Assembly: GCA_050084515.1 (NCBI GenBank)
Contig: CM114271.1
Span: 15,810,001 to 15,874,000 of the forward strand
DNA length: 64,000 bases
From: Blasia pusilla
Lineage: Eukaryota
Direction: 5' to 3'
The position numbers and the translations under genes were made by a program. Position 1 is the stretch's first letter, and every line of letters begins with the position of its first letter. Of this stretch, positions 8,015 to 62,340 are shown in pieces. The notes under the pieces were generated by a model, which was not told the DNA's origin, made no database searches, and saw only the letters and a program-made list of their open reading frames with translations.

Positions 8015-8318
8015 TGTCGTACGCATACATATTGCTACACAACATACATCGCTATCACCAAACATACACACAAACACGCACGATCCCATGCTGACTCATG
8101 GCATCCAAACAACGAGACAAGAAGTACCAAAATATCTCCAATAAATCAATGAAATCTCACATCAACATCTCACACCAAGCTTTCCATGGTGTGCACTCTC
8201 TCTCATGTCAAACCAAACCCACTCCTAATGAGAGGCTCGGGTTACACACACAAGGCAAGGAAGACCATAGCTCCGCCGCCTCATGCCAAGAGGTTCAACA
8301 AAGAGATAATGAGCTCTA

Positions 8319-8406
<88 letters not shown>

Positions 8407-8719
8407 GAAGTATACACCCTTCCTTCTCCCAAGCTCTCTCCTCGGTAACCTATGCTCGTAGGTCACCTCCTTGTCTCTTGACCTGTTGTAGCGGGTAAGG
8501 GCTACTTCCTAAAGTGGAAAGTCAACTATACCAAAAAGGGTAACTTGCTTGAAATAGTAAGTTCCTCAATATGGCTCCAAATGAGCTCAAACGAGGGGGA
8601 AACCTGCTCTCGAAAGTTATCCGTGGCCTCAAAAGGTCATCCTAGACCTCTTGAGGCTGTCTTCCAATATCTCCAAAGGCTCTACTACATCTCGCCGATC
8701 TATCCTAAAAGATGTGACA
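8015..8719 (-). mobile_element. Solo terminal repeat (A+B) of the DNMT-Gypsy family
   Basis: Reverse complement of 42924-43564, with TG...CA ends. ATGG lies directly on both sides (8011-8014 and 8720-8723). It contains an expanded (CT)n tract. Confidence 0.88.
8322..8403. repeat. (CT)n microsatellite
   Basis: Read directly from the sequence. Confidence 0.98.
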
Positions 8720-8729
8720 ATGGCATGGG

Positions 8730-22502: not shown

Positions 22503-23004
22503 CTTTTTGGTTGTATTTGTTTTGCTCATGTTCTCTCTGAAAAACATCAAAAATTAGATGACAAATCTAAGAGATATATATATCTTTATAGGCTACATTC
22601 ATGAAACTAAGATATATAAGTGCTAAATTCCAACCTCTAGACAATTAATTATTAGTCGCAATATCTTTTTTATGAGCTGAAGTCCTAGTATGCTCCATCT
22701 TAGCCCATTCCAACTCTCAAATTGTATGTTGAGGAGGAGAATATGAGTATAAACCAACTAACATTGCCTATAAATTTCCCAAGTATTAATGTAGGGTTAG
22801 GAGAGATACTAGACTCTTTAGTTAAATATTTTAATCCTCGTCGAGAAGAGTATGTATTATGTCTCTTGACACCAATCAGAGCTTAAGTTAGATGTTAGAA
22901 GCATCCACCTCTAAATAATAACTTCGTAGATCAAGTAGAGTCACACATTCTGTTCATAGATTCATAAAGGAAGGATTCCTTGCAACATATCATGCATATA
23001 TGGA

Positions 23005-26000
23005 GGACAGGCAGAAGACCGCATTTTGGGGCATCGATCCTCACGGGAAGGATTGTTTGTACCAGTGACGGTTCATACCATTTGGGTTAAAGAATGCCCC
23101 GGCTGAGTTTCAGAGGGTCATGGATAGGATCTTGGCTGGTTTGGATTTTTCTAGGTGTTATATTGATAGCATCATAGTCTTTAGTGCCACGGTTGAGAAG
23201 CACGAACGACATCTAGAGGAGGTGTTTCGACGATTGCAATTACATGGGCTGAAGCTACATCCAGACAAGTGCAAGTTCTTCTACGACCAGATTGAGTACT
23301 TGGATCATACGATATACCCATGGGGCCTTGGTGTTCAGCAGACGAAGGTAGAGGCTATCTCACGCATTCCACGCCCTATAGATGCGAGCCGTGTTCGCGC
23401 ATTTATGGGATTGGCGAACTTCTATCGGCGGTACGTCAAGGGATTCAGTTTGATTGCAAAGATGCTAATCTTGCTGACCAAGGTGGATCACGAGTGGCAC
23501 GGGGGGATGAGCAGGAATGAGCATTTCAGTTGCTCAAGGACAGGTTGACTTCCGCGCCCATCTTGAAGAGACCGATCAAGGGGCATCCTTTCTAGTTGCA
23601 CACAGATTGGAGCATGTTGGGGCTTGGAGCGATGCTCACCCACCATGATGATGAAGATAGAGAGTTCGTGGTGGCTTACGATTGCGGCTCGAACAACATT
23701 GCAGAGGCAAAGTACAACATGTATGAGGGTGAGTACTTGGTTGCAGTGGGGGTTGTGGCGCATTTCAGGTGTTACTTATTCGGCAACCCCTTTACCATCA
23801 TCACTGATTATCAACCATTGACGTGGTTGATGGAGTCTGACAAGCTTACAAGGAAGCGTGCGAGATGGGCTTAATTGTTGCAGGAATATGATTTTCAGGT
23901 GGTACATAGACCTGGGACGCTCAACCACGATGTAGATGGGTTGAGTCGTAACCCATGCTCGAGTCAGCAAGATGCAATTGGAGCTCGATGGCATGGAGAG
24001 AGTGATGAGGAGTCACTGCCAAGATGGCATGCGTCAGCCTATTTAGGCATGTTGGCTATGGAGAGCCAGAGTGTGGAGACTTTGATGGCGAGGTCTAGTG
24101 GAGAGTCCTTGGATCCCGAGGCTAGTGAGGATACGACAGGTGGCCGAGATATTCATGATGATGGAGTAGTCTTGGAGTACCTTCGTACTGGCAGCATTGC
24201 GAGCATCATGGGTGCTAGAGAGCGGGATCGGATCCTACAGCGGGCTAGACGGTTTCGTTGGGAGGGGACACATGTTTTGAGGGTTTGGAAGGATGGTAGA
24301 GTACACGTAGTGCCACATCCTTCGCAGAGAGCACGACTAGTGCAACATGCCCACGAGGAGTTGGATCACTTTGGGGTGAAGCAAACATACAGCTTGCTCT
24401 AGATTCAATATTGGTGGCGAGGCATGCAGACTGACGTTCAGTAGTTTGTTACCAAGTGTATGGTGTGTGATCGGGTCCGAGCATCGTTCAATGCTCCGAC
24501 TCCTTAGTTGCATCCATTACCGAACATGGGCTTAGGGTATAGATGGAGTTTGAATTTTTCAGGACCTTTGCCTTTGACGAAGCGTCACTGTCATTATGTG
24601 TTGGTGATGGTCGAGCACTTCTCGAAGTGAATCGAGTTGGTTGCATTGCCTGACAAAGCAAGTGAGGGAGTAGCTTATGCCTTCCTTCATAGAGTGCTGA
24701 GTCATTATGGCGCACCGGCTGAGGTGTTGACAGACCAGGGTATCGAGTTTTGTGGTGAGTTCCAAGCCTTGTGTGATCACGCGCTGATCAACCACCGCAC
24801 GACTTCGCGAGATCATCTTGAAGCGGATGGATTAGCGCAGAGAGTTGTGCATACGGTGAAGAGGAGTTTACGCAAATATGGCTAGGAGAGAGGTCACCTA
24901 GGAGACTGGGACCTCCAGTTGCCGTAGTTGGCGATGGGATACAGATTCAGCAAGCAGACATCCTTAGCGTCTTTTTCACTATACTTGCTACTTTATGGCC
25001 GAGAGCCAGATTTACCTACGTCCATTCGTCTAGATGTTGGTGAGGTGTTGGACCTTGATGACCCAGATATATGGATGGGAGCATGTTATCAGAGGGCTGA
25101 GTTGCTTCGGAGAGTGATTCCCATGGCATTCGTGAACTTGGCGATTGCGCAACATCGGGATACGTTGAGGTATGCGACTATTCGGGGTGGTGGTTATCGA
25201 TCAACTATGCGGAGGTTTCATCAGGGAGATTATATCTACTTGCAGCAGATGGCACCGACGACGTTGGATGTGACTGCACGGCACACTATCCTAAGAGTGT
25301 GTGATGTTTTGCCATCCAGTGTTCTCTTGCTGAGGGACGCGATGTTATGGTATGGAAGGACCATGTGCGTAATTGTGCGCTATGTCACCTTCCTAACATT
25401 GATGGTATAGTAGATCCGAGCTCAGCAATAGTTCCTACATGCTTGCGTTGTATGTTGTGTGGTTTTGCTCCTAGTGCGGCCACGATGCTAGTCTGTGATG
25501 CATGTTCGAGAGGTTAGCATATGGCATGTGTGACGCCACCTCTCACTAGGGTTCCTCGAGGACGATGGATGTGTCCTAGATGTACATGGAGGAGATACTA
25601 GGTAGGTTTCAATTCTGACTTTTTTTGTGATATGGATGACAGGAAGGCGACTAACGATGGGGCCACATGAGCACCCGGCCTTTCTGCTCTTGGCGTCCTA
25701 GAGATGTATGTCGTGGTAGGTAGGGATAGATGGCTATCTGGAGTTGGAGGGACCTAACCACCATCTAGGGGGGCGATTGGAGATATTTTGGTACTTCTCG
25801 CCTCTATGTATGGATGCCATGATGCATGGGATCGTGTGTATTTGTGTGTGTGTTCGATGCCAACAATGTATGTTGTATAGCGATGTGTACACGCACGACA
25901 ACTGTCATGACTGTTATGATAGATCAGTGGGATCTAGCAAAGCATCTACACGAGTAGTGGAGGACAGGCCCAAGAAGTTGAGGATGACCTGTTGAGGCCC

Positions 26001-26526
26001 CGGGAAACTTGAGAGAGCAGGTTTTCCCTTCGTTTCGACTCATTTGGAGCCATATAGAGAAACTTACTATTTCAAGTAAGTTTCCATGTTGGGGATAGTT
26101 GACTTTCCACCTTGGGAAGGGGGCCTTGACCCGCTACAGCAAATCAAGAGCAAAGGAGGTGACCTGCGAGCATAGGTTACTATTGAGAGGGCTTGGGAGA
26201 GGGAAGGGGATATACCTCCAAGAGAGAGAGCTTGAGAGCTCATTCTCTCTTTGTTGAACCTCTTGGCATAAGGTGGCAGAGCTATGGTCCCTTGCCTTGT
26301 GAGTGTAACCCAAACCTCTCATTAGGAGAGTGGGTTTGGTTTGACATGAGAGAGAGCGCACAACTTTGACAGCTATGGTATGAGATGGTGTAGAGAGAGA
26401 TTGGATCTTACTTTAATTGCAAATAATTTGGTACTTCTCGCCTTGGTGTATGGATGCCATGAGTTAGTATGGGATCGTGTGTATTTGGATGTGTGTTTGA
26501 TGACAGCGATGTGTATGCGCACGACA
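23005..26526 (+). mobile_element. 5'-truncated second copy of the same Ty3/Gypsy family (RT-RNase H-integrase-PHD plus B-ac-A-B 3' end)
   Basis: Colinear with 40050-43564 and ends CACGACA at 26526. It has the same cacgaca-ac-tgtca junction at 25894-25907. Confidence 0.9.
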
Positions 26527-27525
26527 GATTAAATGAAGGAGAGTTACTTCTAGATTCTAATATGCACATGTGCATGGTTGGAAGTTTAATCTATTTGACT
26601 ACAACTAGGCCAAACTTGAGCTACAAAATTGGCCTAGTGAGCTAGTTGACGCAAACACCTTCGAAACCTTACCTTGATGGTTTGAGGAGGATTATGTTGT
26701 ATGTGAAATTCTCTTTTCAATTTGGACTTCAATTTGAACCTTCTTTGAGTTTATAATTATATGGATTCTCATATGCTTATTGGGTAGGAAATGTCATTGA
26801 TATATATTCTATATATGTTTATTCTTTTATTTTGGGAAATGCGGTTATAAGTTGGTCTTTAAAAAAGTAACATATAGTTGCTTTATCTTAAACAGAGGTT
26901 GAGTATAGAGCAGCAACCAATGCAACATGTGAGGTGGTATGATCCTTTCATCGATTACTTATTGAGATTAGGGTTAGTAACTTAGGACCTAGTGTAATAC
27001 ATGCGGACAAGTTTGGTAGCATAAAGCTTGCTAATAACCTTATGTTTTATGCTCAAACAAAGCATGTTGAGATGTAGTACCACTTTATCAGAGAGAAAAT
27101 GTTTGCAGAAGAAATTGATTTTATGTATAAAGATATAGATCTAAAAATCACTCATATCTTTACAAAGACATTATCTAGAGATAAGTTTGAAATGTTTAGA
27201 AATGATTTAGATGTTAGAGATATCGATACGAGCTTGAAGGGAAGTATTGAAGATTGAGTTATTTGAAGCTCATCAAACACACAAAATACTACACTTGGAC
27301 TCACATAAAGTAGGTAAGATTATTCTTGATTAGTTAGTTAGGCACAATTATCTTAACTAGGATTAGTTAAACACACTAAGTATAACTCGAGATTATGGTT
27401 AGGACTAGGATTAGGTTTTCTTGTACATACCTTATATAATTGAGAAGGGGACAAACCTCCATTCTCTTGTTGTAAAATTTTGTTCTTGATGGTGTCGTGT
27501 ATGTGTGTGTGAGCCGTATCCCATT
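26527..27525 (+). mobile_element. Ty1/Copia 3' fragment (RT end, RNase H, PPT, 3' LTR)
   Basis: MVGSLIYLTTTRP, ISWS.KK, VALS.TEVEYRA and KHVEM.YHFIRE motifs. The PPT gagcttgaagggaag at ~27230-27244 is followed by an LTR at ~27245-27525. Confidence 0.85.
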
Positions 27526-28681: not shown

Positions 28682-28935
28682 GTTGTGCACACACACAATG
28701 CTACACATTACACACAACGTATATTGTTGTCATGATCTTAACACATGTAAACACAAGATACCATAATCACTCATGACATCTACACATATAGACAATTTTG
28801 TACCAAAATATCTTCAATTAATCTCATAGCACAAAACTCTCATATATACTCAATGTCTCTCTCATGTCAAACCAAACCCACACTCCTAATGAAAGGCTTG
28901 GCTTACTCATACGGCAAGGAGGACCATAGCTCTAC
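28682..28935 (-). mobile_element. Partial terminal repeat (B plus end of A) of the DNMT-Gypsy family
   Basis: Shares gtaccaaaatatc and ctcatgtcaaaccaaaccca...cctaatga with 8015-8280. Confidence 0.7.
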
Positions 28936-29084
28936 ATCAACAAGATATCCTTGATCCCTTAAGATTATCCTCTAACCTCCTTGAAGGAAAATTATGGATT
29001 TCCATCAATCCACTACAAAAATATGAGATCTCACAAAGTGAGCCTTTTATATGATAATGACATGTTTACGCACGTATGGCTTGC

Positions 29085-30085
29085 AGAGAGATCATCTAGA
29101 AGACAAGGACCTATAATTGTTATGGTTGGAGACGGGTTAAAGGTTTAACAAGCATCTTTGGCATCTTTTTGACCTTCCTTTTTCTCTATGGATGAGAGTC
29201 CAATGTATCTATAACCATTCTTCGTGATGTTGGTGAGGTGTTGAACCTCAATGACCTTGACATGTGGACGCAAGCATGTTCTTGACAGGCCAAGACATTT
29301 CACCAAGTCCGGCCTACTCATGGCATTTGAGAACTTGGCTATTGCACAACACATTCAGATATACAACTATTTTGGGGGAGGCTATTGACCGAAGATCCAA
29401 AGATTTCATCAAAGATACTACATCTACTCGCAATAGACAACATTAATAACCCTAGATATCACAAAAGGATGCACAAACTTGGATATGCATGAGATTTTGT
29501 CAACAAGAGTCCTTTTGTTGGAGGGACGTAAATGTATGGTTCGAAAGAATCCCTAAACATCATATCACCTTCCTAACATTGATGAGACATTTGATCTAAG
29601 CTTGGCAATCGTACATATAGTCTTGTGTTATATATTGAGTGGATTTGCCACAAGTGCAATCATCGTGTTAGTCTATGATGAACACTTGAGAAGATAGCGT
29701 ATGGCATTTTTTACGTTATGCCTCACTAGGGTTTTTTCAAGATGATTGATGAGTCCCAAATATATATATATATATATATATGATGATTATTTATAAATAT
29801 AGATTTGCTCAAATGACATTGATGACAAGAAAACAATTTTAATGATGCGGCAACATAAGTAACTAGACTTTTAACTCTTAGAATCACAAAGGTGTATGTT
29901 ATGGTAGGAATGGATGGATGGTTAATTGGAATTAAAGAGACCAAAGCACAAACTAAAAGGGTCATAGGAGATCTTTTTGATACATGATTATCTATGCATG
30001 TCGATATCATGATTGAATATCTTGTCTTGGATTTAGGACAATATGGATGATAAATGTAATGTATGTTATGTAGCAATGTGTATAT
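29085..30085 (+). mobile_element. Degraded integrase-PHD-3' region of the DNMT-Gypsy family
   Basis: Blocks ttggtgaggtgttgaacct, catttgagaacttggc and ctcactagggtt match 42085-42575. B-like sequence occurs near 29960-30085. Confidence 0.7.
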
Positions 30086-31849: not shown

Positions 31850-32046
31850 ATTGGGGACTTCTTTGAAAGGATCTTCTATCACTCCAATCCGTATGACTTA
31901 AAGAGTGATAGAAGATCCTTTCAAAGAAGTCCCCAATCCGTATGACTTAAAGAGTGATAGAAGATCCTTTGAAAGAAGTCATACGGATTGGGGACTTCTT
32001 TGAAAGGATCCTTTCAAAGAAGTCCTATCCAATTCGTATGACTTAA
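31850..32046. repeat. Complex direct/inverted repeat cluster
   Basis: A perfect 35-bp stem (31850-31884 / 31903-31937), a 34-bp perfect palindrome (31992-32025) and a repeated ccaatccgtatgactt motif. Confidence 0.92.
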
Positions 32047-35000
32047 ATGCCTACCGCGGATTTTGTAACCCCACTCATGCAACTTAAATTCAAGTGATTA
32101 ACGACCTCATAATGGTTCCTCTCCCGTGTATCTTCTCTCCCCTATGTGGTTGTATACTTCGTATAAAAACTTGTTTGTATATGCAAGATTGTATATGGAC
32201 ACTTTTTCTCTCGTCCCCCAACTTCCCCTCCCTCCCTAGTATTCTCTCCTCTCCGTGCGGGTATTGTATTCCGTGGTTGTATATATTGGTTTGTATTTCT
32301 GTCCCCTCCCTCCCTAGTATTCTCTCCTCTTTGTGTAGGTATTTTATTCTGTGTGTGTATATGTATATGTACTGGTTTGTATTTCCGTCTTAATTTTTTC
32401 CTGGTCCGGCTATTCCTCTCATGGTATGTATACCTCCTATAACAATTTTTCTCTCGTCCCAAAAATTACCCTCCCAAAATGTGTCTGGTATAGAAATTAC
32501 TTCGGTGGGCAATTTGTTTTAAAGGGCCGCTGTCACGTATTTTAGGATAGATCGGCAAGATCTAGTAGAGCGCCTTTGGAGGTACTGGAGGACAACCTCA
32601 AGAGGTTGAGGATGATCTGTTGAGGCCACGGGTAACCTGAGAGAACATGTTTCCCCTTCGTTTCGGCTCATTTGGAGACATATAGAGAAAATATTTTGGG
32701 TAAGTTTCCATTTGGAGTATAGTTGAATTTCCATTTTTGGAAGTGGCCCTTGACCCGCTATAGCAGGTCAAGAGCCAAGGAGGTGACTTGCGAGCATAGG
32801 TTACCGAGGAGAGAGCTTGGGAGAGAGAAGGGGGTATACCTCCAAGAGCGAGAGAGCTTGAGAGCTCATTCTCCCTTTGTTGAACCTCTTGGCATCAGGG
32901 AGCAGAGCTATGGTCTTGCTTACCTTGTGTGTGTAACCCAAGCGTCTCATTAGGAGAATGGGTTTGGTTTGACATGAAAGAGAGTGCACACCATGGAGAG
33001 CTTGGTGTGAGAGATGTGATGTGAGATCTACAATGGAGGAGCTAGCTGGTGCTCGCTATTTGGTGCAGGTTGGGGACCGTGTTTCCCGCTTCATGACTCA
33101 TGGGAGTGCTCACGGAGGAAAGAGCCATGCAGTTTGTTGTTTTGCATTGCTGATTTTCGTACGGGAGACTGGCACGCGGAAGTGCTGCCCAATTTTTGAT
33201 AGGAATTGAGTATGGGGGCGGATTGCTCCATGCTGGTGCTCGCGAGAGCACTGTGTAGCTCTTTGGTTTGTTTTGTGATAGGTTTTCAAATTTTATTGGG
33301 AGAAATCAACGCAGAAGCGTTGCTGAATTTTTGTAGGAGAAGAGACATTGGGTTGCACGACAGTCCCCGTCAGTTTTTGGGGGAAGATTGAATGGAGAAA
33401 CCAATGTAAGGAGGTCGTATCGGGAAGCTGTGCACGTTGAGGAAGAAACGGTGCGCGATTTCATCATCTGACCATGAAGTTACAACAGTTTTGGTTGGGC
33501 TGCCATAACCACTATTCCAAGGTGTGAGTGAAATTTCCAAAATCCTTGGATAGAAATCCTTTTAAGAAGTAGAAAAAAATAAAAATCTTTTTACTTAAAT
33601 GGATAGGACAAGGGCACATGTCCTTTGAGTTAGAAGTTAGGGTGAAAATTTTATTTCAGGGGAGTTGACTCTTTTTTTGTGTGAAGAGTGTGAGTGGGAG
33701 CCAAATTGGAAAACATTTAGGGGGTAGACCCAGTTTTCTGGGGGTCATTTGAGTAAAGTGACAAGTAAAAGGAGGGACGTCCTGCCGAGATTACCGCCGA
33801 CTTGCTGTGTCGGTGAAGTATAAGCTGCCGGAACTGTGTGCCTCTCCGCTGCCTGCTTTGCTGCCGAAAATTGCCGCTGCTAAATGCTCGGAGCTGTTGA
33901 CCTTGCCGCGCTACTACCGCCGCTTGATTTTAGCCGTGCTACTACCGCCGCTTTGACCTTGCCGTACTACTACCGTCTGGCTGTTGACCTAGCCGCGTTA
34001 CTACCTCGATGACCCTGTCGGCGTGGCCTTGACGCGGTTGTGCCGTGCGTTGCTACTGCAGAGCCGCGACCACAGGGGGGAAGCTACTGCGCAGCCACTG
34101 CTGCCTGGTGGAGACTGCCACGACCTGCCTGCTCGGGAGCCCGTGCCGCGGCCATGTCATTGTCAGCCGGCGTTGGAGTTATTTTTGCCCTCCCTCGCGA
34201 TCGCCTACGTGGTTGCTCGCAGTGCGCGCTCTGCTGCGGTTTACCCTATTTTAGGCTTGTTCCATCACAGGCCCCGGAGCCGTCGCGCCCGAGTGGTGCC
34301 CGGGCAGCTGTAGCCGCGAATACAGCCGAAGCCGCTGTGCCCTGTAATGCTGTTTTGCGCTTGTGGACGATGCTACTGCGTTCACTCCTTACGGTGACTG
34401 TCACCGTTGCCACGTCATATGCGCCTGCCGGCGTCGAGCTGTCATGCCCGTCCGTGGATCTCCGTCCGCGGATTTTTGTGTACTGTCCGGCCCTTCCGTT
34501 CAGCTCCGTTCAAGCGCCGTTCGGACAGTCAACGCCGACAGTCCCGACTCCCTTCCTGGTCCACTCTACCCGGCGCGGTCAGGACCTTTCACCGTTTTTC
34601 GCCGTTTCGGATCGGCGACGCTCCATCCGTTACTCCTCCGTCAACGGCGTCAGTTTCCGTTTGTTACCCCATTGGAAATTGAACGGTGGGACCTTGGGAC
34701 AATTGATTTTTATTTTATGCCACCGCCACATATTTGTTCTGGCCGCTACCGTCCTGGCAGTGTGCGTCATCCTTGGATTGATGGGGTGGTAGTGTTTTTC
34801 CGCTTTACTATGTTGTGATTGGTAGCCGCTTGACGACGATCGAGTATCGTGCCCTGACGCCCGTAGCCGCAACGTGCCGCCGATTGCCGCACCGTACCCC
34901 TTATGGTTGCACCGCACCATTTCGATCGCGGAGCCGCACCATCATTGGAGCAGATCGTGTTTTTTTTGAGGAGGATATGCCGCTTAGTGCCGCACCCATT

Positions 35001-35375
35001 TCCGAGTTCCGTGCCGCCAGTGCTGCACCGTCTGATGGACCCGCATCGCACATCGAGGAGATTTGAGCATCGTTTGTACCCGAGGAGTACGACTTGCTGA
35101 TTGGAGGAGATTTTCATCATGATTGAGTTGGGGTCAAGATTTGCAGTTGTTGAGGAGCGACATCGACATTTGTTGTCAGGTTACCCATTATGGTCTTTTG
35201 CCTTGCACGTGTGAGGGAATTCCGGGTATTGGGCAGTTATTTGGGGATATTGGGTTTCGTGCGGATGCTGAGAGCATCATTCATGTATGGGTTTAGGGAA
35301 CATAGACTTGTGTGGGATGTCCAGAGTTGAGGGTATCTCCTATTGATGAGATGATAGGACAATAGTCTATGTTCC

Positions 35376-36527
35376 TGTAATGTCTAAGTATTTCTTATTT
35401 ATAGTCAATTGTAGAGTTCGATCCCCAAGAGGATCATTGTTGGATGAAAAGAGAGTATAAAGTGATGATTATGTTGTAAAAGTGTAATTGATTATGTAAT
35501 TCAATTGTAGTATTCCAGTATCAGCTTCCGATCCTTCTTAGTACCTATGTTTTCTTCTTCAATTCTCTCGAGTGGATTTTAAAGGACGCTCAGGCAATTT
35601 GTTCTCTCATCATCTCGGAACGTCACAGAGACCTCAAGAATAAAGATGGCTTCTCCTACTTTCGGAACTCAATCCGTCGGGGCAGGTTACTCTCTATCAA
35701 ACTGATTTCATACAACTTTATATTGATTATTCCATTGATGAGAAAGGTTCGCCTGATTCACTCTTCACTCGATTGCACTCCAAAAAAAGAATGTTCAGAC
35801 ATAAGCATCGCACATCAGAATGAATGAATGAATGCTTTACTACTCCATCAAGAATTGGAAGACTTCAAAGTATCTACAAGCTCGAGAGGGTACATCTCTC
35901 TTGCTCGGACCATTCCTACAGCATAAGGACTTCATGAGCGAATGATGATAATAGCTTCTGTCCTGTTTCTTAAATATTCTCGAGAGTAGGATCGTTTCTA
36001 TGATCCGAAGTGTTCTTGATGAAGTTGGTGTCTCTTCAATATCTGTAACTACCTAGATCTATGGTTCTCTTAGCTTTTCCTACGATCCCTATGAATCCGC
36101 GGTACAAAACTGTCCTAACGACCAATTTGATACAAAGGGTCGCGCCCTTTCCTAGTCTCATTCTGTAAACTATGTGTCGTTTCGAATCTCAATTCGCTGT
36201 GCTAAATTTCCGGAGGACGAAGTTCTTCTTTCTTCTTCGTGCTTTGCTGAAGAACGAGGTACTTCGTATATAGAGCTTTGTTAGACTTCGTTAAACTTCG
36301 TTAAGCTTCACTGGGCTTCGTGTTGAGCCTTTATACTTCTTTGCAGCTTTTGACTCTCCTCTAAGGCAAATCCTTGATCTTCATCTCTCTGCCTTGTCTT
36401 CGGAGCTTGGTGATTCACTTATTCTTCTTTATAATAATAGATAATCATAATCAAAATCATAATATACAAGAGTCTTCGTTGAATAAAATGATACATTCTT
36501 CAAGATTACAAAATTGTGGGTATCACA
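35376..36527. mobile_element. Probable solo LTR nested in the leader of the DNMT-Gypsy element
   Basis: TGTAAT...ATCACA ends flanked by a perfect 5-bp direct repeat GTTCC (35371-35375 and 36528-36532). The segment is non-coding and more AT-rich than its flanks. Confidence 0.6.
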
Positions 36528-36637
36528 GTTCCGCACCACGCCGCTTGTTGCCGCACAACACACGTCTGTGAGTGAGAGAGTGTGGATTGAGTGCCGCCTG
36601 TTTAGTTGAGTGCTTGAGTGATTACTCGTGAGGTTGA

Positions 36638-36857
<220 letters not shown>

Positions 36858-37049
36858 TAGTGTGTGTGGTCATCATCGCGTCCTTTCAGGACTTTGAGAG
36901 GCGAGATGGTGGACTTGAGAGGGTTTTACGCGGAGTGGCGCGAGGTTTCGAGGGTCTTCACGTAAGAGACCACATCGATCTCCTTCTGTGTGGTCTTCAG
37001 ACGAAGGGGAGAGTGTAGAGGATTGTGTTAGTGATCCACCGCACATAGT

Positions 37050-37930
37050 TAGTGGTCCCACTAGTTGGGCGTACGAGATGGACGACCGGGGTAGAGGACC
37101 ACGTAGGTTTTCGATTGTTATAGGCACGATAAAGTTGCACGACTTTATTGCAGAGTTTAGGAGTAGGTGTGACTCACAACGGGCTAGGAACTCTAGAGAG
37201 TTCAACTCGTTCACAGCATGGAACAGTATGTTCTAGCATTTAGAGGGGGCGCCCATGGACGATTACTATGAGTAAAGATATGCCCAGGAGATTGAGGCAT
37301 GGTGACTCTACTATGACCTACACTATGTGTCATGGACTAAGCCGTTTCCCGATGAGGAGGAGAAGTCAGGAGAGGGTTCCTCCACCAATGATGTTGTAGG
37401 AGGGGTGACTCGCACTGGAGCAGTTGCATCGTCCACTCGAGTTCGGCCCCAGTTCAACCCCGTGGTTGAGTTCTTTGCTAAGTTGAGGGCAAGCTACCAG
37501 GGGGTACGGACGGAGAAGTTGCGGAGCACCCACGACTTCCAGAGTCGGCCAGATGAGATTTTGCGTGAGGCCTACATCCACTTGCGCTGGTTGATTAACG
37601 TCACCCAGGGGGTGATAGAGGCTTAGGCTATCTAGACATGGTACGCGATGTTGGACCGGAACCTACGGACACGGGTGCTTCTTATGAACACTTCCCCTAC
37701 ATTAAGAGATATTTTTAGTACCGCCAAGAACATTGAGCGCAACATGGCAGAGGAGATCATAGCCACCATGGAGGTCGTGGTGAGGATTTGCCCAAGACAT
37801 CCTACAAATGAGTCCGTGGTACGAGCCAAGGTGATAGTGACTGATGCACAGTCCTACGATGTCTTGGTTGGTGGAGCAGTGTTGTACCCGATGCGGTTTT
37901 CCCTAGATTACTGGGAGGAGTCAACCTCTT
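37050..37930 (+). pseudogene. Retrotransposon gag and C-terminal aspartic protease remnant
   Basis: EFFAKLRASYQG...LRSTHDFQSRPDEILREAYIHLRWL is gag-like, and RAKVIVTDAQSYDVLVGGAVL is the protease C-terminal DhLhG motif. The catalytic D-S/T-G is not seen and is probably deleted. Confidence 0.6.
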
Positions 37931-38339
37931 AGAGACCAGGATGGCAATAAGGTGATGGGCGCCTTAGCTCATTACCCGTTCGATTCACACGTGCAGTGAT
38001 CGAGCGCCGGCCAAGAGAGATGGCGATTTTAGTAGCATTTAGCAGCGCCATGACTTGGCCTAGTGATTTGATCGAGGGACATGTCCATGTAGAGGATACT
38101 CATGTTCCTGACATTTTTATGGAGAGGAGTGTCATGGTAGCCTCATCAGTCCGTGGAGGAGAGGTGCCACTTTGGGGATCGACGAGGAGCTTCGACACTT
38201 AGCCTCTGAGCATGTGCAGACCGCGTGGAGCGAGGCGTTTGCACCAGAGCATGACGGGTCAGAGGAACCTAAGGTAGCCGAGAGTGCTATGATGATGCCC
38301 TTGGATATCACACCCATTGTGTGGCGCATCCCAGAGGAG

Positions 38340-39290
38340 GGTATTCGGGTGTTGGATCTCTTTGGAGGGATCATCACTGGGTTAGCTATTGTTTTGCACA
38401 CAGGAGTGCGCGTGCAGCAAAACCTATACGTGGAGATTGATGATGTTGCGAGGCGCACTTCACTTCATCATATGGCGCAGTTACGCCTCCATTTTCCCGA
38501 CTTGTTGTCTGCATCCGCTCTCGAGGGATACTAGAGTTCCCTATCGAGGGATATTTCATTGCTGGGGGCACGGGACTTGGAGCGGATAAGGATCTTTGAT
38601 GCTTGGTCATTGCTGGTTGGTCGTGTCAAGGCCAATTGAGTGTTGGACGGGATAGTGGATTAGCTGACTCGCGGTCCAGGTTATTTTGGGAGATGATGCG
38701 GATCTTGCGATATTTACATGAGCATCAGTCCCGTTCCCCAACATACATTATGGAGAATGTGCCAATTTTGGGCGATTCGAGGTCCCGCATGGTGACGAAT
38801 GCACATCAGGTGCGCGCATGGATTGGCGCCGGCAATGTTGTTGGATGCGGCAAGTGTAGGTTCATGAGCACATCGCCTGCGTCTTTGGTGGACCAACTTG
38901 GTCCCACATGAGGTTTTGCGGAGGGCGTATGCGAGAGTGGATCGCCCCTCCGATTTGTTGGTGGATTCTATGTTAGATCCATGTCGTCGATCACAAGTAG
39001 TGAGGGACGATGATCAATTGCCGATGATTGTGGTCAACAAGATTGGCATGCCATGAGCACCCTTTCCCACATTGGTGAGTTTTCTCGTTCCTATGCATTC
39101 AAGGAGGCCGGACTTGGCTTGGTTTGGGATGACCAAGTACAGCGGTTGGTGGAGCCCAACGCCGATGAGCGAGAGCGAGCGATGGGATTTCCCATAGGAG
39201 TGACGGCAGTACCGTCACTATCAGAGGCATCATGACGTCGTGTCTTGGGTCAAGCGATGGACCTGGACTGCTTGACATGGATTTTCAGCT
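38340..39290 (+). pseudogene. DNMT3-like C5 cytosine DNA methyltransferase domain inside retrotransposon pol (frameshifted)
   Basis: Motifs occur in canonical order: I GIRVLDLFGGIITGL; II YVEID; IV LVIAGWSCQ (PCQ); SRLFWEMMRIL; VI YIMENVP; VIII DAASVGS*AHRLRLWWTNL; IX ERERAMGFPIGVT; X RRVLGQAMD. Confidence 0.9.
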
Positions 39291-39639
39291 TAGGAGTAGT
39301 TGAGAAGCGTTGTTTGTGGATGCGACAGATCACAGTTGTTGTGTTGGTGAGCCCATGCCTACCGAGACGGTTGAGGCAGTGGCTGGGGGCGAAACACGAG
39401 CACATCGACACACCAGGGGTGACTGGGAGAGACACCCTTGGACTTCTCGGGATGTTTTGCAGGTACGCTAGGAGATGGTAGCCACAACATCAAGCGTGGT
39501 TGTGGGTACTGCATATGGAGATCAGAGTTTGAAGTTGGATGCAGGGGAGCAACCGAGTGCTACTTCTCGAGACGGGGTTGCACCATATCAACCACCTACA
39601 CCCACGCCGGAGAGTCGTACTGTAGTTTCGATGGAGATT

Positions 39640-42447
39640 TGGAGCCAGATATGGGCCCTAAGTTGACAGGAGGAGAGCGGGGCTGGATACACTAGTTCCT
39701 AAGGAGTTATAGGAGTTTTTTTGCATTTAGTATGCATGATTTGGGTACGCTGAAAGGTCCGGGATATGCATTGAGTTGTCGAGCGACACGCCAATCTTCC
39801 GATGATCCTACAGGTACAGTGACATGGAGAGTATGCATTTGCCACTATCATGCCCGCCAAGAAGGATGTGCATGGCAACTAGATGGATAGGCGGGTGTGT
39901 GGAGATTACTCACCTATTAATCTGCAGATGAAGTCTGATAGGTATGCTATGCCCACATCTGAGGAGATCTTTGATGCTATTAGGCACGCAAAGGTCTTCA
40001 GTTTGTTAGATCTTTGAGCCGGATACCATCAGCAGCTTATCAGATTGGAGGACAGGCAGAAGACGGCATTTTGGGGCATCGATCCTCATGGGAAGGATTG
40101 CTTGTACCAGTGGTGGTTCTTACCTTTTGGGTTAAAGAACACCCCGACTGAGTTTCAGAGGGTCATGGATAGATCTTGGAAGGTCTAGACTTTGCTTGGT
40201 ATTATATTGATGGCATCGTAGTCTTTAGCGCCACGGTTGAGGAGCATGAGCGACATCTAGAGGAGATGTTTCGACGATTGCAATTACATGGGCTGAAGCT
40301 ACATCTAGGCAAGTGCAAGTTCTTCTCCAACCAGATTGAGTACTTGGGTCATACGATATACCCAGGGGGCCTTGGTGTGCGGCAGACAAAGATAGAGGCT
40401 ATTTCATGCATTCCACGCCATATAGATGTGAGTCGGGTTTGTGCATTCATGAGATTGGCAAACTTCTCTCGACGGTACGTCAAAGGTTTTAGTTCGATTG
40501 CAAAGCCACTAACCTTGAAGACCAAGGTGGATCAGGAGTGGCACTGGGGGGGATGAGCAAGAGAGAGCATTTGAGTTGCTCAAGGGCAGATTGACGTACG
40601 CGCCCATATTGAGGAGACCGATCAGGGGCGTCCTTTCCAGTTGCATAGCGATTGGAGCATGTTGGGGCTTGGAGCCGTGCTCACCCAACATGACGATGAT
40701 GGTAGAGAGTTCGTGGTGGCTTACACTAGTCACTCGAGCAACGCTCAAGCTGCAGAGGCAAAGTATAGCTTGTATGAGGGTGAGTGCTTGGCTGCGGTGT
40801 GGGCTGTCGCACATTTCAGGTGTTATTTATTTGGCAACCCCTTTACTATCATTACTGATCATCAACCACTTAAGTGGTTGATGGAGTCCAACAAGCTTAC
40901 AGGGAAGCTTGCGAGGTGGGCCATTTTGTTGCAGGAGTATGACTTCCAGGTGGTGCATAGACCTAGGACGCTCAACCAGGATGCAGATGGTTTGAGCCGT
41001 AACCCATGCCCGAGTCAGCAAGATGCGATTGGAGCTCGTTTGCATGGTGAGAGTGATGAGGAGTTGGTACCAAAATGGCACGCGTGAGCCTATTTGGGCT
41101 TGTTGGCTATGGGGAGCCAGATTGTTGAGACTTCGATGGTGAGGTCTGATGGAGAGTCCTTAGATCCATAGGCCGGTGAGGAGACAAGAGGTAGTCGAGA
41201 CATTCACGACGATGGAGTGGTCTTGGAGTACTTGCATAGTGGCAACGTTGCAAGCACAGTGGGTGCTAGAGAGCGTGATTGAATCCTACAGCGAGCCAGA
41301 CGGTTCCGGTGGGAGGAGACACATGTGTTGTGAGTTTGGGAGGATGGTAGAGTGCGTGTGGTGCCTCATCCTTTGCAGAGAGCACGTTTGGTGCGTCATG
41401 CCCACGAGGAGTTGGGTCATTTTGGAGTGAAGTGGACGTGCAGCTTGCTCCAGATACAGTATTGGTGGTGAGGCATGCAGACTGATGTTCAACAGTTTGT
41501 TGCTAGGTGTATGGTGTGTGATTGAGTCGGAGCATCATTCAATGCTCCGAATCCACAATGCATCCACTTCCAATCATGAGTTTAGGTTATAGATGGAGTT
41601 TGGATTTTGCAGGACCTTTGCCTTTGACGGAGCCCCATAGTCGTTATGTGTTGGTGATGGTCGAGCACTTCTCAAAATGGATAGAGTTGGTTGCATTGCT
41701 TGACATAGCGAGTGAGGGAGTAGCGTATGCCTTCCTAGATCGAGTGCTGAGTTATTACGGCGCACCAGATGAGGTATTCACAGACGAGGGTACAAAGTTT
41801 CGCGGGAAGTTTCAGGCCTTGTGTGATCAGGTGTTGATCGACCACCGCACTACTTTGTGAGATCATCCTCAGGCGGATGGACTAGCGGAGAGGGTTGTGT
41901 AGACGGTGAAGAGAGGATTGCGCAAGTATGGCTTGCAGAGAAGTCACGTAGGAGATTGGGACCTCCAGTTGCCGTGGTTGGCGATGGGATACAAATTCAG
42001 CAGGCAGGCATCCTTAGCCTCTTTCTCACCGTTCTTGCTTTTGTATGGCCGAGAGCCAAATTTACCTACGGCCATTTGTCGAGATATTGGTGAGGTGTTG
42101 AACCTTGATGAACCTGATGTATGGATGCGAGCATGTTCATGCCCATGACATTTGAGAACTTGGCGATTGCTCAACATTGGGATATGTTGAGGTATATGAT
42201 TATTCGGGGAGATGATTATCAACCTACTATCCGGAGGTTTCATCAGGAAGACTATGTCTACTTGCAGCAGACGACACCCACGACGTTGGATGTGACTGTA
42301 GGGCGCACCATCTTGAGAGTGCGTGAGGTTTTGCCATTCGGTATTCTCGTATTGGAGGGACAGGATGGTATGGTTTGGAAGGACTATGTGCGTAATTGTG
42401 CGCCATGTCATCTTTCGAACATTAACAATACGTTGATCCGAGCTTAG
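39640..42447 (+). pseudogene. Ty3/Gypsy pol: reverse transcriptase, RNase H and DDE integrase (degenerate)
   Basis: RT motifs KTAFW, PFGLKN, YIDGIVVFS and KCKF...YLGH. RNase H motifs HSDWS...LGAVL, YEGECLAAVWAVAHFRCYL, TDHQPLKWL and LARWAILLQEYDF. Integrase motifs HEELGHFG...CMVC, WSLDFAGP, TDEGTKF, HPQADGLAER and SPFLLLYGREP. Confidence 0.93.
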
Positions 42448-42460
42448 TAGTAGTTCTTGC

Positions 42461-42610
42461 AGGCTTGAGATGTATGTTGTGTAGTTCCGCCCGTGGTGCA
42501 GCCACTATGCTAGTCTATGATGGGTGCTCAAGAGGATGGCATATGGCATGTCTGACGCCATCTCTCACTAGGGTTCCTCAAGGACGATGGACGTGTCCCC
42601 GATGTACATA
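42461..42610 (+). pseudogene. PHD finger (C4HC3) at the integrase C-terminus
   Basis: LRCMLCSSARGAATMLVYDGCSRGWHMACLTPSLTRVPQGRWTCPRC. The second copy at ~25445-25585 retains all ligands: CMLC...VCDAC...HMAC...WMCPRC. Confidence 0.88.
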
Positions 42611-45298
42611 GAGTAGGTAGTTCTAGATTCTGACTTGTGTCTATGACATGGATGACAAGAAGACCACTAACGATAGGGCCACATGATCACCTGGCCTTTT
42701 GCTCTTAGCGTCCGAGAGATGTATGTCATGGTAGGTAGGGATAGATGGCTATCTGGAGTTCGAAGGACCTAGCCACCAGCCAGGGGGAAGGGTAATTGGA
42801 GATATTTTGGTACTTCTCGTCTCGTTATTTGGATGCCTTGAGTTAACATGGGATTGTGCGTGTCATGTGTTTGTTCGGTGACAGCGATGTATGTTGTGTA
42901 ATGATGTGTATGCACATGACAACTGTCACGTCTTTTAGGATAGATCAACGAGATCTAGTGGAGCGCCTTCGGCAATATTGAAGGACAGCATCAAGAAGTC
43001 GAGGATGACTTTATGAGGCCATGGATAATCTGAGATAGCAGATTTCCCCTTCGTTTCGGCTCATTTGGAACCATATAGAAAAATTTACTATTTTAAATAA
43101 ATTTTCATGTTTGGTAACATTAACTTTCTACTTTGGGAAGTGGCCTTTGACCCACTACAGTAGATCAAGAGCTAAGGAGATGACCTACGAGCATAAGTTA
43201 TTGAAGACAGAACTTGGGAATGGGAAAGGGATATACCTCCAAGAAAGAAAGCTTGAGAACTCATTATCTCTTTGTTCAACCTCTTGACATGAGGCCACAA
43301 AACTATGATCTTGATTGCCTTGTGTGTCTAACCCAAACCTCTTATTAGAAGAATGGATTTGGTTTGACATGAGAGAGAGAGTTCACACCATGGAGTGCAT
43401 GGTGTGAGAAGTGTGATGTGAAATCTATTTGATTTTATTGGAGATATTTCGATACTTCTTGTCGCGTTGTGTGAATGGCATGAGTTAGCATAGGATCTTT
43501 CGTGTCTATGTGTTTGTTCAATGACGGCGATGTATATTACGTAACGATGTGTATGCACACGACAACGCTTGTTGAATTCCATGTGTCATTTGGGAATTTC
43601 AAAATAATTTTTAACATACGATCAACCAAACCATTTTCCTTCATTTTTCTTAACTAATTTTCTTTGTATAGACATTTTATCCAAAAACAAGGCAACTTCC
43701 TTCTCAATTAGAGTTCTAAAATCTCCATAATTAGAGTTTTTAAAATCTCCATAATGGAAAGAAAAATTTTAAAACAGACTTTATAAGACAAAAACAATCC
43801 TCACGACTTATGGGTAAACTTGGCTATATAACAAATAGAACCTGGGTAAACTTGGCTATATGACAAATAGAACCGTTACATACTTGGAGGAATAGCTGAC
43901 CCGAAATCCTCGATCATAACCTAGCCACTTTCTTGAAATTCGCAACCCTTATGATCTGATGAAATTATGGACAAGTTGCTAGACCAACTATGACAAGGAA
44001 GCGTCTTGTCCGCATTTGCAATACCAAGGGGAAGTGGGACCCAAGCAGTTCTACCCAAACCTCGCAGACAAGAAACAACAACTCTTCAGCTCCACAATTT
44101 CAGGAAAAAGCAGGCTGACAGTAATGAAAGATTTTCCTGTATTTTGTGTCGACAAACAACCAGCCAGAGCTGAGAAAACTTCCAAAGTTACTCCATGCCA
44201 ATATGAATACAGGGATAGTAACGGCCAGGGTTCGGGGAGTTTTTTCGCAAGATCTGGTCCATCGCCGGCAACGTCCCGGTTTTGAGATACGAGATAAGGA
44301 TACAAAGGACCAACTCGAATTCCAACCGATTTTCGTAGGTAACTTTAAAATCAATCCAAAATTCTCAAATTTAACCTCCTAGCAATATTCGTAATTCCGG
44401 AGCTCCCCGATCATTGGTACCGGCGCTTGGAGACTCCCCTGACGTAGTCTCAGAGGATGGACCTGACATCCTCGAGCACTACAATACTGAGCCAAATTCG
44501 TCCCTTAGCAACTCTTACACTCAGTCTCACACCCATGACCAATGCGTGAGAACTTGAGAAGGGGGCCCCGAGCAATAAGTTGGAGCATGCCCCATCCTTC
44601 GAAGTTCGAACTACCTGATGGGGACAGAGGGCGGAAACGTTCGAACTACCTCATATCCCGCTCGCCTTGGTATGGAAAGCCAGTCACTGCAATTGCCCTG
44701 GTCTTCAATTATGCTACGATACGTAACGTCGAACACATTCTTCAGAAACCCAATAAAAAGTGGAAGATGGAGTTTTACCAGCCTGTAAGTGAAAAATGTG
44801 TGCGTGGCTCGAGTTCCCAGCTCTCCGAAAATCGTTTTAGAGTATCAACCAATACGCTATCAATTAATACTGATTATCAATCAAGTAAATTCGAATTGGA
44901 AAATGCAAAAAAATTTGGAACAGCGAATTCATCTTACACACTCTTTTGAAACCAGAATACAGATCCGACCCATAAAAGAAAGTGAGATAGAAACAATGAC
45001 GAAATAAATAATTGACCCAACAGGAGTCGCCTTCAAAACCTATGTGGTAAGTGGAGATCTTCCTTCGGAGATTTGCGGGTCGAATCTAATCCTCCTGAGA
45101 CATTACAAGACTTCATCTAAGTTTGAGCTATACAAGAAAAAACATTTACAACGTTTTGGCGGGGAAAGTTAGGGCAGATAAACTGCAGATGTTCCATCGC
45201 GCATGCCTGAAATTGAAGGATCGACATTGGAACTTTCCCTTCATATAAAGAGATTCGTTAGAATCCCAATTTGTCGAAGGCAGCCATCATCTCCCAAT

Positions 45299-56165: not shown

Positions 56166-57276
56166 GATTTAGCTATTTGCAGCGGAGGGAGAGAATCGTA
56201 CCTAGACTAAGCAAACTTACGATACAAAATTACTTCAATAAGGATAATTATCAATTCAACTTAAGAAAAAAATATTTTTGTGGTATCAAAAGAATGTGCT
56301 TGAAGGTATGAATCTAGGAAATCCTTAGGAAAATAGTGTATTTAGAAAGTAACATAAATATTTGAGAGGAATAGACATGAAAAGGATCTATACATAAAAA
56401 CAGAAAGAAGAAATAATGGAGCATCCACTTGGGAGAAAAAACTAATTCTTCAAGACAATCATAAGAAGACCAAACATCCATGAAACCAATATTTGAGGAG
56501 AAAATAACCAAAAAATTTGAGAACACTAAGAAAACTATTTTAAGTGAAAATGAAGTCACCCATCAATGATTCATATGAGGGATAACAGCATAATATTGGG
56601 CCATTGTATAAGAATGGATTGAGTAAAATAAGAGGAAACCTTTAATATAGTTGAAAAAATTCAATGACACCATAAAAAAGATTAAGATACGTAAAGTCAC
56701 TAAAAGAAAAATGCCACTTTTATGACTTTAGACCTAATGACTACTTACTTTAAAATGACTCAATTGTAAGTGAACTAGTCATGATATGCACTATTAGTCA
56801 AAAGTAGTCATTTGTCTAATCATATTTAGTCATAATAAAGTATTCTAAGTCTCTCTAAAAAATGACTCGAAACTTTGAGTCACAAAATATGGTTATGACA
56901 ACACAGGTTCCACGTGGACAAGACCAAAGTCTTATGAACTTAGCGCTAGAATGTAAGTGGTGAACCTTGGGGAGAGGGAAGTAGGCGTCAGGGTACGCAG
57001 GCGCGCGTTGCAGCAAATTGAACTCCTTGTGTGGCCGGTTTTGTGTGTAGTCGGGTGAAGGGTTTTGTCTCTCTTTGAGGTGTGTAAAGATGCTGATTGT
57101 GGAAGAAGATTGAGAAAGGGAAAGATAGTGAGTGAAGGCGTGAGGACGGAGGAGAACACAAGCTTGTAGGAGGCGAGCAGAAGAGGAAAACGACCAAGTG
57201 CACGAGAGTTTTGCTAAAGAACTAAGTTGGAGAGGCAGGCAGAAGAGCATATCAGCTTAGAGAATTATAGAAGAAA

Positions 57277-62340
<5,064 letters not shown>

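Follow-up and report, generated by a model that had tools for sequence, protein, structure and literature searches.

The 64,000-nucleotide stretch of Blasia pusilla DNA analyzed here (assembly GCA_050084515.1, contig CM114271.1, positions 15,810,001 to 15,874,000; hereafter the window) contains, at positions 32531-43564, an element that is shown by its sequence to be a decayed Ty3/Gypsy-type retrotransposon of the Gypsy-Dnmt3 kind. In place of two equal long terminal repeats (LTRs), the element has a segment A alone at its 5' end and the compound B-NN-A-B at its 3' end, and the same build is found in relatives. The integrated form can be written TSD-A-[leader, genes, purine tract]-B-NN-A-B-TSD, where TSD is the target-site duplication. 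The reading that we favor, with a probability of roughly 0.6, is that in this Gypsy-Dnmt3-kind element the reverse transcriptase (RT) defines a B-NN-A repeat, and that an intermediate with joined ends, a step that we infer, would be cut at a palindrome inside that repeat.

An earlier note on the window, made by inspection of the letters, had described the layout A...B-ac-A-B, and both BLAST and a repeat finder recovered it at the same coordinates. The 5' repeat A1 (32531-33030, starting TGTCACG) is 79% identical to A2 (42924-43427) over 506 nt (E 5e-125), and B1 taken with the following AC (42795-42923) is 82% identical to the B2 region (43437-43566) over 130 nt (E 3e-32). B1 proper (42795-42921) ends in CATGACA and is separated from A2 by the 2-nt spacer AC (42922-42923), giving the palindrome GACA-AC-TGTC. 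From the end of A2, a 9-nt joint, tttgatttt (43428-43436), leads to the start of B2, which forms the right end of the element (43437-43564, ending CACGACA); homologous short joints are present in a second copy and in a solo A-B unit of the window. All these segments are read on the plus strand. Neither program found a B copy adjoining A1 in the main copy. The polypurine tract agggggaaggg (42782-42792, plus strand) lies 2 nt before B1 and adjoins it rather than A2, as had been pointed out before. No TGG-type primer-binding site was found after A1 in the main copy, in agreement with the earlier observation that a clear tRNA primer site is missing there, and a tRNA scan detected no tRNA genes in the 64-kb window.

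The ends of the main copy are TGTCACG...CACGACA, and its target-site duplication is imperfect: CCGC on the left (32527-32530) against ACGC on the right (43565-43568), a match at 3 of 4 positions with no strand assigned to either. This is unsurprising because the copy is old, its repeats being ~80% alike. With TG...CA ends (TGTCAYG...CRTGACA) and 4-bp target duplications, the family agrees with Ty3/Gypsy (Metaviridae) elements, for which 4-6 bp are usual; the main copy has this 3/4 match. The second copy claimed in the earlier note was also recovered. It is 5'-truncated (23001-26526, plus strand), its segment 23001-26516 aligns to 40046-43537 with 82% identity over ~3.5 kb, and its 3' layout is that of the main copy: RT to PHD finger at 23003-25583, AGGGGGG at 25767-25773, B1 at 25776-25900, AC, A at 25903-26415 and B2 at 26416-26526.

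Eighty related loci were found in metagenome contigs with an alignment of ten polyproteins and annotated with A and B segments collected from the loci themselves. The arrangement pol, run of G, B-NN-A-B was present in 19 of the 80 loci, which fall into three sequence subgroups and amount to 16 distinct insertions when each of three pairs that share an identical right flank is counted once. The run of G directly precedes B1 in all 19; in one of them, L011, B2 keeps its last 29 nt only, and it is the full B1, not this 29-nt fragment, that follows the run. In the relatives, B ends in ...CRYGACA (variants AACA and GATA), NN is AC, GC or AT, and A starts with TGTCAYG. Perfect 4-bp duplications were seen in all three complete A...B-A-B elements (L029, AAGG; L004, TCTC; L011, CCAC), where they lie beyond the first base of A and the last base of B2 and enclose the whole unit. 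Among the 11 elements with both ends, 8 have a perfect 4/4 duplication, for which chance is 1 in 256 each. The claim that target duplications mark the A start and the B end was borne out fully in these three loci and in the solo unit of the window, but only to 3/4 in the main copy. Fifteen loci retain a 5' A: in none of them does a B lie beside it, and in none is an A-B-A found at the 5' end. The earlier note had named copies that would reduce the pattern to a local deletion or duplication, namely those with both A and B in the 5' repeat, a primer-binding site after it and the purine tract immediately upstream of A2. None of these 15 loci is of that kind, and the layout is a trait of the whole family.

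A second class of relatives comprises 24 loci (not de-duplicated) in which only B follows pol before unrelated sequence begins. Both ends are available in six of these B-only loci, and four of the six have perfect duplications (L012, TACA; L013, TACA; L038, TGTT; L052, TGCA); of the remaining two, one has a 3/4 match and one no duplication. L012 and L013 are different A-genes-B insertions with the same TACA duplication, which may hint at a target preference. That the A-genes-B contigs might be young copies collapsed during assembly found no support, their longest pol frames (122-437 amino acids) being as broken as those of the B-A-B loci (112-370 amino acids).

The layout was also followed in raw reads of Blasia pusilla, of which ~1% of each of two whole-genome shotgun runs (X7 and X8, ~139,000 million letters each) was read. 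The flank depth was 0, and the internal region was covered ~2,000-4,400 times with both orientations summed. B1 reached a depth of ~3,700-4,000, that is, ~1.6-1.8x the adjacent internal bins. Joins from the A tail to the B start were found in 164 reads of X7 and 134 reads of X8, and 1,438 reads of X7 are clipped just before the B start, with a clip consensus that reads like the A tail. No joint from the purine tract to A was present among the joints listed. B starts after the purine tract and B starts after A are therefore both common in the Blasia pusilla genome. Because the raw reads support both junction types at high depth, the layout is neither a local accident nor an assembly artefact. 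With the family depth over window positions 42200-43566 in the thousands and the flank depth at 0 in ~1% of each run, the family is very abundant in this genome and forms a major repeat of it, and the host genome is large.

All reading frames of the main copy are broken, and Pfam scans were made on single open frames. They identified an RT (39832-40556; RVT_1, E 1.3e-11, also recovered by tblastn of the intact relative P0057), a Ty3/Gypsy-type ribonuclease H (RNase H; 40575-41087; RT_RNaseH, E 2.7e-34) and an integrase (41164-42127; matching P0057 residues 1144-1345) that comprises a zinc-binding region and an rve DDE core at 41522-41860 (E 1.2e-9). These are followed by the integrase C-terminal region (42139-42608; P0057 residues 1359-1513), which ends in a decayed PHD finger corresponding to P0057 residues 1470-1513. 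All are encoded on the plus strand, and RT, RNase H and the integrase with its rve DDE core follow one another as in a Ty3/Gypsy (Metaviridae) Pol. The Gypsy DDE integrase read in the earlier note was thereby confirmed; the TG...CA ends read there also hold. No chromodomain was found at the integrase C-terminus, where the PHD finger takes its place. A search for tyrosine recombinase (PF00589) was negative in the window frames tested on both strands and in the six relatives scanned.

Missed by the earlier note was a Dnmt3-like C5 cytosine methyltransferase upstream of the RT (38112-39292, plus strand), interrupted by stops and frameshifts. It was recognized by PF00145 (E 1.9e-5 at 38600-38911) and by P0057 residues 149-324, which map to 38796-39292. 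The window methyltransferase fragments gave no solved-structure match; the methyltransferase region of the intact relative P0044 (residues 101-246) matches DNMT3A chains (E 1.6e-4). The best solved-structure match of P0044 is the Ty3 RT/RNase H (E 5e-102), and the PFV integrase was also matched. In P0057, the methyltransferase is followed by RT, RNase H, a zinc-binding integrase domain, rve and a PHD finger, and the protein is collinear with window positions 38796-42605 and, in the second copy, with 23003-25583. The relatives P0079 and P0083 are ordered RT, RNase H, methyltransferase, integrase and PHD finger. Since the methyltransferase stands there between RNase H and integrase and not before the RT, the domain would have moved, or would have been acquired twice, within the clade. 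Between the leader and the methyltransferase, the broken frames at 36919-38202 (plus strand) are presumed, by position only, to be gag and protease; they match L004, L012, L029 and L038 in tblastn (E 1e-10 to 1e-17) and gave no Pfam match even at E up to 5.

The signals for reverse transcription are best read in the relatives. Ten of the 15 loci that retain a 5' A have, at the boundary where A1 ends, 12 bases that pair at 11-12 of 12 positions with a segment inside A that lies 124-178 nt before the A end, a complementarity reached by at most 1 in 200 shuffles. A TATA box stands 20-35 nt upstream of the paired segment in 8 of the 10. Two subgroups keep the pairing with different letters, ACTCAAAGAACT opposite AGTTCTTTGAGT in one and TCTAGAAAAACT opposite AGTTTTTCTAGA in the other, and L013 has its own compensating version. 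In minimum-energy folds, the predicted RNA 5' end paired with the primer site in nine of nine RNAs, which had been picked for having the complementarity and which span from the paired segment to just past the primer site. In Tf1, the RNA 5' end folds back and primes the minus strand. The relatives carry the signature of this Tf1-type self-priming, the start of the RNA being predicted. Self-priming has been stated for Tf1/Sushi and for the plant Tcn1 clade (PMC6317226). The earlier suggestion that priming may be independent of tRNA is supported by this covarying complementarity in the relatives, while none is detectable in the decayed 5' end of the window copy.

Because the purine tract abuts the B start and the self-priming site follows A1, the repeat unit defined by reverse transcription in the relatives is, on these predicted signals, B-NN-A. 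The A end would be the end of the 5' unique region (U5) and the B start the beginning of the 3' unique region (U3), so defined that U3 would consist of B plus the head of A and R-U5 (R, the terminally repeated part of the transcript) of the tail of A. The main copy has a GGGGGTATA box ~195 nt before the A end, at the same position as the TATA box of the relatives, and by homology with them A1 would hold the promoter and R-U5. The leader that follows (33031-36918, plus strand) is ~2.9 kb longer than those of the relatives.

The integrase uses other boundaries. The 4-bp duplications border an A start that reads TGTCAYG and a B end that reads CRTGACA, which form a 7-bp terminal inverted repeat. 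Because the duplications and the inverted repeat place them there, the integrase ends are assigned to the A start and the B end, which in the B-NN-A unit stand abutted, 2 nt apart, as the palindrome GACA-NN-TGTC. Since these boundaries fall within the repeat that reverse transcription delimits, the A-genes-[B-A]-B of the genome is a circular permutation of a two-LTR [B-A]-genes-[B-A].

At the A2|B2 joint, the last base before the primer site meets the first base after the purine tract, so that the U5 end stands against the U3 start as in the junction of a two-LTR circle. Among nine group-2 loci the joint is exact in four; of the remainder, two are off by +1, one by -1 and one by -2, and in one a large deletion has removed the 5' side of B2. 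The boundary between purine tract and B1 is without indel in eight of the same nine loci; the ninth is L011, where the full B1 follows the run of G. Of the four bases that come first after the run of G, the B2 of group-1 loci has all, some or none, and one locus has 17 extra bases. As A2|B2 is ragged while the purine-tract|B1 boundary is without indel, an imprecise end-joining step would fit the formation of the A2|B2 joint.

The joined-ends reading can be laid out as follows. Ordinary self-primed reverse transcription would make a linear [B-A]-genes-[B-A]. The A end (U5) would then be joined to the B start (U3), either in a two-LTR circle or in a head-to-tail joint, and this would create the A2|B2 joint. 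The integrase would cut the palindrome of abutted ends in the repeat that adjoins the primer site, and it would insert A-genes-B-A-B with a 4-bp duplication. Only A-genes-B-A-B would keep a complete 3' B-A, including the 3' R, and so could found further copies. The A-genes-B and solo A-B forms would result from cuts at other palindromes or from later deletions between B1 and B2 or between A1 and A2.

Several points weigh against this reading. The circle, which the earlier note had thought possible, or any other joining of the ends is purely something that we infer from the sequences. Random cutting of a two-LTR circle predicts an equal number of A-B-A-genes-B insertions. These were seen at 0 of the 15 loci that retain a 5' A, so one palindrome would have to be preferred, for which the model offers no reason. 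The 24 B-only loci, with perfect duplications in four of the six that have both ends, could be either primary products or deletions. The types of A|B joint partly follow subfamily, so they could have been inherited and not remade in each cycle. L014 and L015 are 99.4% identical up to the B1 end and then diverge, so that chimeric joins at the edges of repeats may be present in some of the metagenome contigs. At L036 (14275-14900), purine tract|B-NN-A is followed by unrelated sequence at the exact A end, without B2; this could be the right end of an ordinary LTR, the outcome of a deletion or a contig chimera. Finally, the 5' end of the element in the window, the only one that the window holds, has no significant self-priming complementarity, the best ungapped pairing being 8/14 and the gapped score being reached by 207 of 500 shuffles.

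The main rival is an end rebuilding during reverse transcription similar to that proposed for DIRS, PAT and Ngaro elements, which we regard as unlikely, though the most serious of the other explanations. The transcript would run from inside A1 to inside B2, the complete B1 and A2 would act as internal templates, synthesis would switch from B1 to B2 and from A1 to A2, and the linear complementary DNA (cDNA), extending from the A start to the B end, would be inserted directly. It is by this layout that split-direct-repeat elements are defined in PMC4157794, the B1-NN-A2 segment holds both complete ends abutted, and such a route yields only the isomer that is observed, which would explain why A-B-A 5' ends are missing from the 15 loci. 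However, the only supported primer site follows A1 and not B1, and a minus strand begun at that site cannot copy B2. The predicted RNA 5' end has no complementarity to the TGTCAYG of the A start, and no RNA end compels the switch from B1 to B2. As the purine tract abuts B1, the plus strand would begin at B and not at A, and the indels of 1-2 nt at the A2|B2 joint are unexpected from simple copying. Poorer still are the chances of a model in which A-genes-B is the true insertion product, made from a linear cDNA cut at both palindromes, and the A-B tail was added later by a second or solo unit or by unequal exchange. Self-primed reverse transcription could not copy such a product, which has no 3' R; the spacing of B1 and A2 is invariably 2 nt, which is not a 4-bp duplication, and in all three complete elements the duplication encloses the entire A...B-A-B. 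The abundance of A-to-B joints in the Blasia pusilla reads and the B depth of ~1.6-1.8x internal are likewise against it, even if the 24 related loci with only B after pol, and the four of them with perfect 4-bp duplications and a decay like that of the B-A-B copies, are what it would lead one to expect.

Two further explanations were considered and carry far less weight. An ordinary element with an LTR of the form A+B could have been deprived of the B of its 5' LTR and given a partial LTR at its 3' end by local deletion or duplication, nesting or misassembly; the window offers only one 5' end, the copy is old (~80% repeat identity) and its leader has ~2.9 kb extra, all of which would suit such an accident. 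This is nevertheless very improbable, as the second copy of the window repeats the layout, 16 independent insertions of three subgroups have it amid different flanks and duplications, a 5' A+B is found at none of the 15 loci, the run of G never adjoins A2, and both junction types are seen at high depth in the reads. That a true tyrosine-recombinase retroelement (DIRS, PAT or Ngaro) merely lies beside Gypsy fragments can practically be discarded. Split direct repeats together with a methyltransferase are given as typical of PAT and DIRS elements (PMC4157794, PMC5890265), but no tyrosine recombinase was present in the tested frames of both strands or in the six relatives, the rve integrase and the Ty3-type RT/RNase H belong to one collinear pol, the insertions have 4-bp duplications and TG...CA ends, and the methyltransferase is C5 Dnmt3-like and not Dam-like.

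A Gypsy element with repeats of the DIRS type is not without precedent, and the novelty of this combination had been overstated in the earlier note. KnitGypsy-Dnmt3 of Klebsormidium nitens, in which Dnmt3-type enzymes lie inside the Pol of an LTR Gypsy element, was published by de Mendoza et al. in 2018 (PMC5890265), and the legend of Fig. 4c in that paper states that its repeats have the DIRS structure and its domains are those of Gypsy. Neither a primer site or purine tract nor a target duplication or a model of replication is given in section 9 and the legends of the paper (PMC5890265). KnitGypsy-Dnmt3 and the window element have in common the Dnmt3-type C5 methyltransferase in a Gypsy Pol and the DIRS-like A...B-A-B repeats. 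By pairwise similarity alone, the window element is nearer to liverwort proteins than to those of K. nitens: the nearest proteins to its RNase H frame are from Riccia (77% identity), Calypogeia (76%) and Marchantia (70%), some of the matched Marchantia proteins carrying the methyltransferase, whereas the retrotransposon proteins of K. nitens are 57-60% identical. The 2018 paper was the only literature on KnitGypsy found. A search combining Marchantia, retrotransposon, DNMT3 and reverse transcriptase gave nothing relevant among the matches listed, and no Gypsy case was apparent from the titles and abstract starts among the matches listed for split-direct-repeat retrotransposons. Gypsy-Dnmt3 elements with DIRS-type repeats are thus already known from one alga, and the window element is a further case from a different plant lineage. 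What is added here, by computation only, is the offset between RT and integrase boundaries, the self-priming signature, the 4-bp duplications, and the solo A-B and A-genes-B derivatives.

PAT, TOC and Ngaro elements share with the window element the split direct repeats A1...B1-A2-B2 with the complete ends abutted internally (PMC4157794). They differ in having a tyrosine recombinase, accompanied in PAT and DIRS by a Dam-like methyltransferase, whereas the window family has an rve DDE integrase, 4-bp duplications, TG...CA ends and a C5 Dnmt3-like enzyme. The relatives of the window element resemble Tf1/Sushi and Tcn1 in that the primer site beside the 5' repeat is complementary to the element's own transcript start, which is predicted here. 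Tf1/Sushi and Tcn1 have ordinary LTRs and a chromodomain, whereas the window family has a PHD finger tail and integrase ends inside the repeat unit. The self-priming helix is 12-17 bp in the relatives against 11 in Tf1. The tyrosine-recombinase elements PAT, TOC and Ngaro are not known to make a target duplication. There is no settled account of end rebuilding in split-direct-repeat retroelements, and it is not known to have been discussed outside the tyrosine-recombinase group. Bacterial insertion sequences of the IS3/IS30 type transpose via a circle or tandem junction with a DDE enzyme of the rve fold, their ends being abutted with a 2-3 bp spacer. They are DNA transposons without reverse transcription, and the analogy applies only to the cutting step that we propose for the window family. 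In a broader and more tentative form, which we hold to be possible at somewhat less than even odds, a plant Ty3/Gypsy lineage would have moved its integrase sites from the LTR tips to an internal palindrome of abutted ends, the cDNA ends being joined before the integrase cuts the junction in the manner of IS3/IS30; this would make it a DDE counterpart of DIRS/PAT/Ngaro replication.

The window family combines a DIRS-like layout with retroviral-type integrase footprints, a readable primer site and a purine tract, so that the two boundary systems and their offset can be compared directly. Proteins with methyltransferase, RT and RNase H are annotated in Marchantia polymorpha, a transformable model plant, which brings the question within reach of the bench. 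The abundance of the family and its DNA methyltransferase of the de novo type bear on genome size and silencing. If true, a joined-ends lineage could be a living model for the origin of split-direct-repeat retroelements from LTR elements.

The window holds further traces of the family. A solo A-B unit absent from the list of the earlier note lies on the minus strand (8011-8723 including duplications; A at 8719-8154, B at 8142-8015), the unit 8015-8719 having CCAT on both sides as a perfect duplication (8720-8723 and 8011-8014). Since a crossover between A1 and A2 would leave such a unit, it is the counterpart of a solo LTR. A (GA)n microsatellite has expanded within its A (8330-8410, minus strand), where the other A copies have a short gagagag run only. 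An A+B fragment is present on the minus strand at 28702-28933. The second copy ends inside a Ty1/Copia-type pol (26527-27131), the flank of which translates from RT to RNase H-like sequence with stops, and so is a nested insertion. Next to the A+B fragment, positions 29054-29977 (plus strand) hold the integrase 3' end of a more distant relative, ~64% identical to 41918-42808 and purine-rich at its end, and a further Gypsy-type RT fragment at 10974-11447 is 40% identical to P0057 residues 559-718.

Within the long leader of the main copy, no nucleotide matches of 33031-37100 were found to the leaders of the relatives or to the rest of the window. The leader contains a (TG)n microsatellite of ~370 bp (36545-36914) and a GC-rich frame of 259 amino acids (34013-34792) that has neither a family match nor a counterpart in the relatives. 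A long tract of the (CT/GA)n type, read as an SL-repeat frame, occurs at 57257-57925 (minus strand), and short tandem repeats of 48-78 bp stand just upstream of the element, at 31884-32362.

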